From: Parachlamydiales bacterium
Lineage (GTDB): Bacteria > Chlamydiota > Chlamydiia > Chlamydiales > Rhabdochlamydiaceae
Assembly (NCBI GenBank): GCA_963705295.1
Contig: OY970065.1
Coordinates: 1,440,001-1,504,000, forward strand
Reading direction: 5' to 3'
Length of the DNA: 64,000 nucleotides
A program made the position numbers. Below are positions 30,001 to 33,000 of the stretch, piece by piece; position 1 is the first letter of the stretch; each line of letters opens with the position of its first letter.

Positions 30001-33000
30001 GCTGCGGGTGGGATGCTAGCGAAGAAGAAATGGGGGACGTATTTTGCGACGTTTTTGACTTTTATTTTGACCCTATTTTTCACCTATCGTTTTTTCATCA
30101 CCTTTAAATTCATGCCTCCTGGCCTCCTAAGCCTCATAAGTTTAGGTATTTTAATTCTTTTAATTATTAGAACTAAAATATTGATTATTATCACTCGTAA
30201 ATGATATAATTTAATTATGACATCTTTAATTAAAGCAGTGGACGGTTATGCTATTGGACTTGGCGATGCTGTCAAGGGACTGCATGTTGCTGTCAGGATG
30301 GGAAACGCTCTCGACGTCACAGAATCGACTTTAGAAACCGGCGGTGGCATTTCGTATTTATCGTATTACGTCACTCTGATCGAGAAATATCTTCCAAAAT
30401 TCTCTGCAGATTTCGCACGAGGTTTCTCTTTTACAGCGATGCTCGGTTATGCGGGTGTCGTTGCCTCGGCGTTTTTCATGATTAAAGAGAGTCTTTCCTT
30501 AATCAGACAGATTTCATTCATCCGGATATTTAATCACCACGCTTGGAAAGAAAACCCCAAATCTCTTTTAAAAGATCTCATTAAACGAAATCCCCTCTTA
30601 TTACAACGAGCTCTTCCTGTATGGCTTCGTGGGAAAAATAATTTGAATCAACTTCTACAGGGAGATAAACAAGAGGCGATCCAAAAACTAGACCAGATCC
30701 GATCGTACGCCATCAAAAAAGCGATTTGGCATGCGGTTGCAGTCGTTGGTTTTGCCCTGGGTGTTGTCAGCGGCGTCTGTTTAGCCATGGCATTTCCACC
30801 ATCGATCCTTTTCTTTTTGATGGGAGTGGCAGTGGCATTTGCCGTTGGTAAATACATCTTAAAATACGGATATGTTGAAAATCCAGACGGTGGCTTTTCT
30901 TTGATGAAGTGCTTTCCAGAGTGGATCCAAGCTTGGAAAAAAAGACGAGATGCTTACCAACAATGGATGCACACTTATCCGGGCCTTTTAACGACTCCAG
31001 CCAGCGGTCTTTTCAAAGCCGCTTTCATCGATTGAAGCAGCTCTTCTAAAGACAGATAATAATCACCCGAAAGAGTCGGGTCATCATCATAAAACAGCCA
31101 TCTCTCATTCCAGTGGATGACGGTTCGATCCCTAACCTGACCTTTTTGATCGACGTAGGTCAAAGTAAAACACCGGATTCTCATCTTCTTTGCCCCCGTA
31201 AGGATCATCTCCAATCCTTTTGCAAAGACATCTTTCCGAAAAAGATACGTACCCGGGGGCATTCCCAGGAGAACCCTCTCAGCATCTTCTCGGCCCAGAG
31301 CGTGCCACGCCTCATGGAGAATCGAGCGGCCTTTAATGACATCCATGGAAGGATCCAAGGGGAGGTGTGAAAGCTCTCGAAGATCGTGGATATGCCTCAA
31401 TGCTTGTTTGAGAAGGTGAAACGTCTCGTCCATGATATGCGCGCTCATTTTATTCAGTTTTTTCAGTTCAAAAACAGCCTCTTTTGGCCCTGTGATATAG
31501 ACATCGTGCTTGTCCAGGTCGAGGTGCAACTGGACTAAGACAAAATTTCTTTTCAAATGGACAGGAACATTTTCCAATACCCCCGTCTCCCGATGGAGCG
31601 CCAGGGGAATGATTTTCTTTCTCTCTTCTTTTTGAGAGTCGATCGCACGCAGATTCTCCATAACCGTATCGACATTTTGGCGGACCGTTTCATTCTGAAT
31701 ATGGAGTTTATACATGGTCATCCCCTCTTTCTTTTCATTATAATTGAAAAATTTTATTTACAAAAGGGATCATCATTCTGTAAGATGGGAATTTATGAAC
31801 AAAGTCGTTGATCAACTAACCGAAGAAGCCCGAAACGCTCGAAAACCCGATTCTCCGATTTTGCCCCTTTTTGTGAATCGGTGGTCTCCCCGCTCCATGA
31901 CAGGAGAAAAAATGACCGAAGAAGAACTGATGCCTCTTTTCGAAGCGGCCAGATGGGCCCCTTCTTCGTATAACAACCAGCCTTGGATTTTCATCTACGC
32001 CCACCGAGAGACACCCTCCTGGGAAAAAATCCGGTCGTATATGATCGACTTTAATAAAGAATGGACCAAAAACTCTTCCGTTGTTTTAGTCGTTCTTTCG
32101 AAAAACAACTTCTATAAAAACAATAAACCGGCCAGGACCCATAGTTTTGATACCGGCGCCGCATGGATGTCCCTGGCATTGGAAGGTTTTATCCGTGGCT
32201 ATGTCGTTCATGGAATGGAAGGGTTCGATTATGATGGAATCAAAAAAGAACTCCAAATTCCTGAAGATTATACGGTTGAAGCGTTGGTTGCCATCGGAAA
32301 GCGAGCCCCCAAAGAAAAGCTTCCCCCTGAAATTCAAGAGAGAGAACACCCTAATGATCGAAAGCCTGTCGTTGATTTTATTATGAAGGATAAGTTTCAA
32401 GAAAGATCGAGCAAGGCTTAAAAAGCCCTGCCCGATTCATGAACCTGCTTAGACCTGATTACCAGGCAGCAGATCTTTTTGCTCGTCGAGCACGTGATTT
32501 AGTAGCACGTCTTTTAGTTGTTTTTCTAGTTGACTTACGAGCTGATTTACGTGATTTCTTAGCCATAATTAACTCCTTGTTGGCTTGTAGGCCGTGTATA
32601 AACACATTTATATTCCCTACAATTTTCAATGTACAAAATAATTATTTAATTTGCAAATTTTTTTATAGACATTAATAAAAAGATGAATAAAATTAATCCC
32701 GTTATGGCCCATTTTGTTTCATTAAATTCCGCTTGTAATTCACCCCCAACTACATATAGTTTAGACGATATAAAAACGACTATTATGGAAGCTGAAGATG
32801 CCAGAATAAAAAAAGAATATTCCATGGCATTTTCTTTATTTCTTTTGGCTGTTTATAAAACTAAACACATTCCCGGCATCGAAGGAATAAAATGGAGATC
32901 TATCTGTTATTTGAAAGGCATTACTATCATGTACGAAGACAATAAAGATCATGGCCCCTATATTGATTTAACACGAGAAGCCTTAACTCAGTTAAAAAGT

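Follow-up and report, generated by a model that had tools for sequence, protein, structure and literature searches.

Does a short basic open reading frame, reported as uncalled in the genome of a Parachlamydiales bacterium of the Rhabdochlamydiaceae, encode a protein that packs the chromosome, and where does such a gene come from? The frame lies on contig C1 (OY970065.1), within a stretch of 64,000 nucleotides called here the window, to which coordinates refer unless preceded by C1. The predicted product is a peptide of 35 residues and 4.1 kDa, with 17 lysines or arginines, no aspartate or glutamate, a predicted charge of about +16.5, and neither a hydrophobic stretch nor a signal peptide. For K/R/A/S/T content it comes top of the 281 basic candidates left after filtering the genome's 78,094 short ORF starts, and it has zero family matches in Pfam and NCBIfam. 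The genome-wide survey's note had described a minus-strand Lys/Arg-rich frame of 35 residues behind a strong ribosome-binding site and a conserved upstream region, and the description is borne out by an AAGGAG motif, a leader and promoter-like boxes. The features of the locus are as follows.

31798..32421, plus strand: nitroreductase gene, the convergent neighbour (PF00881, E 1.8e-16) and a marker of the locus in many genomes
32406..32436, minus strand: intrinsic terminator-like hairpin, between the peptide gene and the convergent nitroreductase
32459..32566, minus strand: peptide gene (third histone H1-like locus), 35 aa of Lys/Arg/Ala/Ser/Thr, from ORF reading, composition and homologs
32573..32578, minus strand: Shine-Dalgarno AAGGAG, outside the leader stem, 6 nt before the ATG
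32586..32621, minus strand: 5' leader stem-loop, UGUAGG (32621-32616) pairing with CCUACA (32591-32586), starting about 6 nt after the -10 box
32628..32633, minus strand: -10-like hexamer TACATT, in homologs mostly TATATT
32651..32656, minus strand: -35-like hexamer TTGCAA, with 17 nt separating it from the -10 box in this genome and in the relative G005
32683..33966, plus strand: divergent 427-aa ORF of no family, in a slot filled by different genes in relatives
33979..36993, plus strand: glutaredoxin, APC amino-acid permease and MgsA/RarA genes, locus neighbours conserved across families

Judged from sequence, the frame is a real stand-alone gene with its own expression signals. The -35-like box, TTGCAA or a near variant, is found at the same place in most leaders of the genus, and a -10-like box can be placed in 88 of 97 distinct homologs. 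The two presumably form a predicted promoter of sigma66 type; a generic promoter scan did not pick up the TTGCAA box. Sigma28-like boxes were not found in the promoter region, and late expression is therefore not indicated by the promoter. Three terminator-like hairpins occur in the region against 0.2 in shuffles, and a terminator stem of the same family is present in most homologs. A codon-bias test of the gene against only two reference genes gave p 0.64.

The leader closes just 5' of the Shine-Dalgarno, whose mean pairing probability over 88 leaders is 0.28. Its 5-pair stem is paired in 140 of 140 cells of 28 leaders, and two of the five pairs are changed on both sides, the structure being taken from the same alignment used to score pairing. 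For 73 of 88 leaders, pairing is stronger between the leader's own two arms than with arms taken from other leaders. The folding z has a median of -1.7 over the same 88, and is only -0.5 in the source genome, where the inner hairpin (32605-32594), long and variable in relatives, is shortened. Rfam gave no match at the gathering score, the best E being 3 in the window stretch and 0.37 in four homologous loci. The leader is plausibly a 5'-terminal stabilising stem. A near-identical 25-nt hairpin, which has no Rfam match, lies between stop codon and terminator in two genera (L058, L060, L062, L065, L066, L067, L070).

A DNA search found the gene in 13 of 18 genomes of the genus. An intact ORF of 31-35 aa with the same start, Shine-Dalgarno and terminator was read in 12 of the 13, in line with the survey's claim that relatives encode versions with the same start and leader; the exception is G013, with a one-base shift in the A run after the start codon. 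Length changes between homologs are steps of three, and the frame is kept through indels in 12 of the 13 genus relatives. By protein-guided alignment of these low-complexity sequences, 474 of 1531 same-residue codon pairs show silent differences; mismatches by codon position are 706/579/857, the third being the highest. The five genus genomes without a match are 57-90% complete or reduced, and four also have no nitroreductase match.

In the family the DNA search marks 37 of 129 genomes, source genome included. The survey's counts for genus and family are thus both reproduced, the second proving too low as a measure of range. The leader model matches 88 of the 129 genomes, and the ORF was read directly in 89 (one with a frameshift, two truncated at the end of a contig), nine further genomes with strong leader matches standing outside the count of read ORFs. 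Among 16 more family loci read, the ORF is missing only in L068 and found in the other 15; among 40 regions with weaker leader matches, a basic ORF lies behind the leader in 35, and the five having none (L264, L265, L268, L272, L281) were dropped. Records of Candidatus Rhabdochlamydia sp. hold 51-54-aa versions of the peptide. One genome, G121 (L263), has two tandem gene copies, each with its own leader, one encoding 83 aa and the other broken by an assembly gap.

Other searches were less productive. A profile of 28 peptides hit 15 of 400 genomes of the phylum, all in the family, and missed at least five known carriers, so that it is uninformative on absence. A generic pattern of Shine-Dalgarno plus start run over the genome contigs led to unrelated genes. 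A 54-aa homolog searched against a protein database gave 17 candidates, none at E 0.01. Exact look-up in a protein collection retrieved none of 10 sequences, and is little informative since the 105-127-aa ones were absent too. In an atlas comparison the best value, 0.87, was below the useful level, and the nearest named cluster, HC2 at 0.78, is a lead only. No description of the gene was met among literature titles and abstract openings, a set with most subscription papers outside its coverage.

The origin of the gene is indicated by what fills the locus elsewhere. In other genera the same site encodes 65-161-aa proteins made of Lys/Arg pairs plus Ala/Thr/Val. Outside the family, 29 regions were read, and contain the third-locus gene in 7 cases (five families), true hctB in 10, long Hc1 in 2, an unassigned gene in 7 and nothing in 3; three of four out-of-family leader matches were dropped. 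The versions found in the five other families, 96-193 aa long or partial, reside beside nitroreductase, glutaredoxin, APC permease, RarA, proC or PAP2 genes. The leader model found none in 10 Chlamydiaceae-type (f4) and 10 f6 genomes, but as it overlooked an entire genus of carriers within the family, such misses are no proof of absence. Altogether 97 distinct homologs range from 31 to 193 aa, with 42-59% K+R and a near-absence of acidic residues, as follows from how the set was chosen. Pentamer repeats, two basic residues plus three Ala/Val/Thr/Pro, are clear in the 65-193-aa orthologs and reduced to 3-4 loose units in the 35-mer. Gene and homologs are, as H1-like polycations, K/R/A/T-rich, acid-free, repeat-built and of low complexity. 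The share of arginine is higher in the shorter homologs, R/(K+R) being 0.52 at 28-36 aa versus 0.28 at 100 aa or more; the correlation with length (Spearman -0.53, n=97) is a descriptive trend, since kin are not independent.

The long forms are close to Hc2 (HctB; PF07382, NF038052). They share Lys/Arg pairs spaced by Ala/Thr/Val/Ser, the lack of acidic residues and a length varying with repeat number, and they score on the HC2 model. In a six-frame search reading through stops they reach 54.2, 49.7 and 41.1 bits, over the cut-off; by hmmscan they remain below it, with 33.0, 30.1 and 31.3 bits against PF07382 (threshold 40), and long orthologs never exceed 33.0 bits with PF07382 and 25.2 with NF038052 (threshold 135). 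A true 91-aa hctB itself scores only 25.3. The notion that the peptide gene is an hctB ortholog was rejected. Two marks identify true hctB, a C-terminal TA[HE][SGN]W motif and the neighbouring holA-rsmI. The motif is absent from the peptide and from the orthologs inspected, and the gene has its own leader stem and its own locus, with nitroreductase, cyclophilin and glutaredoxin genes in place of the pepA or fabI-holA-rsmI surroundings of hctB; the holA-rsmI site houses a different gene, a short hctB of 43 aa. G112 carries Hc1, true hctB and a 105-aa form of the third-locus gene in one genome. Size differs as well, 31-35 aa here versus 165-237 aa for Hc2. By these marks the third-locus gene is a paralog of hctB, Hc2-like by composition, and the 35-aa gene represents, in shrunken form, a third histone-like gene that environmental chlamydiae possess. 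That short and long forms are homologous is argued from shared synteny and leader and from an unbroken series of lengths rather than from E-values. Other chlamydial families contain 54-212-aa H1-like genes fitting none of the three loci (L316, L317, L318, L320, L321, L322, L328).

According to the survey's note, neither Hc1 nor Hc2 is detectable in this genome. PF07432 and PF07382 searches returned nothing real, and the best hit of a custom Hc1 model (E 0.022) is an unrelated frame. The usual hctA locus, upstream of an RNA methyltransferase gene, is empty in the source genome and in all five other Hc1-negative genus genomes checked; at C1:652300-652500 (L073) a gap of about 200 bp separates the usual flanking genes in a contiguous stretch. 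Given this gap, and given that the custom model finds nothing, the loss is real, and hctA is, on the reading of its site, truly deleted. The claim holds for Hc1 and fails for Hc2. A repeat-less hctB of 43 aa is found at C1:1167404-1167532, minus strand (L416:1905-2033), in the order fabI-hctB-holA-rsmI. It carries the C-terminal motif of Hc2, which a model made from 13 Hc2 C-termini detects at E 8e-6, and a promoter-like site, TTGACA-17-TATTCT, of sigma66-type boxes.

At E 0.5, a short hctB query matches 111 of the 129 genomes of the family, some matches being spurious; at 24 of the 30 best loci a motif-bearing ORF of 41-64 aa was read, and nearly all adjoin fabI or holA. In the genus, Hc2 is 41-61 aa long and without pentamers, and the conserved C-terminal motif may serve a separate function. 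Hc1 exceeds the Pfam cut-off in 97 of 129 family genomes and in 10 of 18 genus relatives. In all ten of the latter it is 60-68 aa long, versus 70-112 aa in 20 others read, and it has no long basic tail of the kind that most of these 20 possess. The peptide resembles that lysine-rich, DNA-binding tail, missing from the Hc1 of the genus; it differs from Hc1 (HctA; PF07432) in locus and by having no N-terminal helical dimerisation domain, and the two occur together in 9 of the 13 carriers in the genus and in 73 of the 89 carriers read in the family. The idea that the peptide gene exists to replace Hc1 was for this reason rejected: with Hc1 kept by 73 of 89 carriers, it was not born as a replacement. 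Since Hc1 is tail-less and Hc2 repeat-less in the genus, the peptide and two smaller ones are the main free polycations found.

Additional small basic genes occur in the genus. A second peptide, at C1:307920-308024, has 34 residues, is basic and ends in a CxxC-like motif (L448, L449, L546); its conservation in two relatives, as reported by the survey, is confirmed, with 78% and 63% identity in 2 of 18 genus genomes. G005 carries a tandem pair of 23 and 31 aa, and G002 has a 19-aa gene with a similar start near a similar neighbour. A 22-31-aa basic gene with a Trp/Cys-motif end resides near the main gene and the glutaredoxin gene in seven genus genomes and in G111, with its own promoter, 5' hairpin, Shine-Dalgarno and terminator (L005, L008, L009, L010, L018, L019, L057, L453). 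It is absent at the window's locus, and there the main peptide uniquely ends in Trp. A basic ORF of 29 aa with Shine-Dalgarno and two Trp at C1:594422-594511 (L075:3423-3512) may be related to this Trp-ending gene; no ortholog of it was read in five relatives. A gene for a 29-aa bS22/COX24-type ribosomal peptide (PF08213, E 1e-7, over the cut-off) lies at C1:241928-242017 (L076).

What does the main peptide do? Hc1 and Hc2 condense DNA, and Hc1 binds via its lysine-rich C-terminus (PMC2848022). From this literature and from composition, we lean towards a polycation of H1-tail or protamine type acting in chromosome compaction, probably within elementary bodies. The survey's proposal of a nucleoid-condensing candidate is strengthened by the long Hc2-like orthologs at the locus; its argument from the absence of histones is weak, Hc1 accompanying most carriers and a short hctB being present. 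According to the proposed scenario, a sigma66-type promoter would drive a stand-alone unit giving an mRNA of about 220 nt, and the 5' stem and terminator would protect this mRNA, making it stable and well translated. The 17 basic residues of an unstructured peptide would bind DNA phosphates with no sequence preference, and with its charge neutralised the chromosome would collapse, most likely during the formation of elementary bodies. Phosphorylation of the Ser/Thr residues between the basic pairs could, speculatively, permit release. In the source genome, having hctA deleted and hctB repeat-less, the peptide and two other short basic peptides would do the packing.

Small basic peptides or H1-like proteins are found in other settings. 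Protamines and protamine-like sperm proteins, with about 30-35 aa, half of them basic, and many Ser/Thr, are built as the peptide is; homology is not claimed, and the homologs of the peptide, unlike protamines, are still half lysine with few long arginine runs. Coxiella ScvA, a tiny basic peptide from an intracellular bacterium whose resting form is condensed, has been speculated to act in chromatin condensation (PMC13568565) and is likened here by description; it belongs to a different phylum and is known to be stage-specific, which the peptide is not known to be. Bordetella BpH1 and the Burkholderia H1-like proteins (NF038053) are pentamer-repeat H1-like proteins which the long forms match weakly (E 6e-5 to 0.26 in 4 of 10), far below the 80-bit cut-off, and they are 149-231 aa long versus 35.

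A broader interpretation is tentative, and as things stand doubtful: packaging in the genus may have passed to free, arginine-enriched peptides of 19-35 residues that stem from a third H1-like gene. This would parallel in bacteria the shift from histone H1 to protamine, and would be invisible to standard gene calling.

For the favoured compacting role itself, R. socialis offers a supporting contrast: none of the three genes was found in it, and its sister, the Bodden MAG (bioRxiv 2024.11.28.625222), lacks Hc1 and keeps a 33-aa peptide and a short hctB. Against that role stands the joint shrinkage of all three genes in the genus, which a relaxed need would explain as well as a hand-over would. 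In C. trachomatis, moreover, condensation is reported to persist after knock-down of hctA/hctB (PMC13317200), so that basic proteins may not be the condensing agent.

R. socialis has been described as lacking hctA and hctB and as showing nucleoid-like structures, its chromatin being either unpacked or condensed by an undescribed mechanism (bioRxiv 2024.11.28.625222). The survey had suggested a link between the peptide and this mechanism. Targeted searches of the R. socialis chromosome (L473) gave a best E of 0.41 with the leader model, zero matches with the peptide query and neither Hc1 nor short hctB; a start pattern matched three times, as in the control, and none of the matches is such a gene. 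As no trace of the gene is found there, the peptide gene cannot be that mechanism and the link falls; nucleoid-like bodies without the gene are a counterpoint to the favoured function too. R. socialis also lacks the genes neighbouring the peptide locus, so that the loss is one event and may be incidental. The species is reported to have no extracellular stage, and absence of the gene from such an organism fits a role in elementary bodies weakly.

According to a different view, which is unlikely but deserves consideration, the product is a housekeeping nucleoid-associated polycation, made throughout growth and with no special role in elementary bodies. BpH1 of Bordetella, Hc2-like, expressed in exponential growth and dispensable (PMC2848022), is a precedent, and the gene was found in none of 10 Chlamydiaceae-type genomes, whose owners make normal elementary bodies. 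Sigma66-type boxes in place of sigma28-like ones point in the same direction, but short hctB has sigma66-type boxes as well, and promoter type does not settle timing. Against a housekeeping role, the gene is undetected in R. socialis, the species reported without an extracellular stage.

Somewhat less probable is a peptide binding RNA or ribosomes, which would silence translation or protect ribosomes in dormant cells, the leader stem being possibly autoregulatory. Size and charge are those of small ribosomal proteins, the leader is conserved and paired, and Hc2 is reported to bind RNA more strongly than Hc1 (PMC2848022). A variation of 31-193 aa by repeat number is, however, a poor fit to a ribosomal pocket, and the leader, whose covariation is free, keeps the Shine-Dalgarno largely accessible. 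The separate gene at C1:241928 already provides a bS22/COX24-type peptide, and the 35-mer has zero matches to PF08213 and NF047430.

A cationic peptide directed to the host or associated with the envelope is improbable. The bacterium is an intracellular symbiont with effector-like genes nearby, and basic clusters resemble nuclear localisation or cell-penetrating signals; but the sequence offers no hydrophobic stretch or signal peptide, and locus and leader are strongly conserved across families, unlike the variable surrounding genes. A non-coding RNA or attenuator with an incidental ORF is more improbable still, for although 200 of 200 shuffles fold less well than the whole 226-nt unit (z -4.06), some genera have the 25-nt 3' hairpin in common and a 78-aa antisense frame overlaps the gene in the source genome, much of the folding energy is supplied by the terminator, no co-directional gene lies downstream to be attenuated, the antisense frame has 0-7 stops in relatives (from 120 nt upstream to 60 nt downstream), and codon changes leave start, Shine-Dalgarno, frame and composition intact.

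The results bear on the inventory of chlamydial histones. Published surveys score DNA condensation by hctA alone, present in 83% of genomes (PMC8242063), and hctB has been treated as poorly conserved outside Chlamydiaceae (bioRxiv 2024.11.28.625222). The present analysis points to a third histone-like locus, carried by at least 69% of one large family and known from five further families, and to a short hctB that most members of the large family have, both below Pfam cut-offs; genomes scored as histone-less may not be. Additional nucleoid factors have been called for (PMC13317200), although searches of Chlamydiaceae-type genomes did not turn up this gene. Making the peptide synthetically and testing it would be inexpensive.

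Two neighbouring regions of the window are worth recording. A minus-strand gene at 30975-31721 encodes a 248-aa protein whose C-terminal half resembles an SH2 domain by eye, Pfam giving no SH2 match. At 24547-28088, plus strand, two adjacent genes combine LRR and NEL E3-ligase domains and are effector-like.
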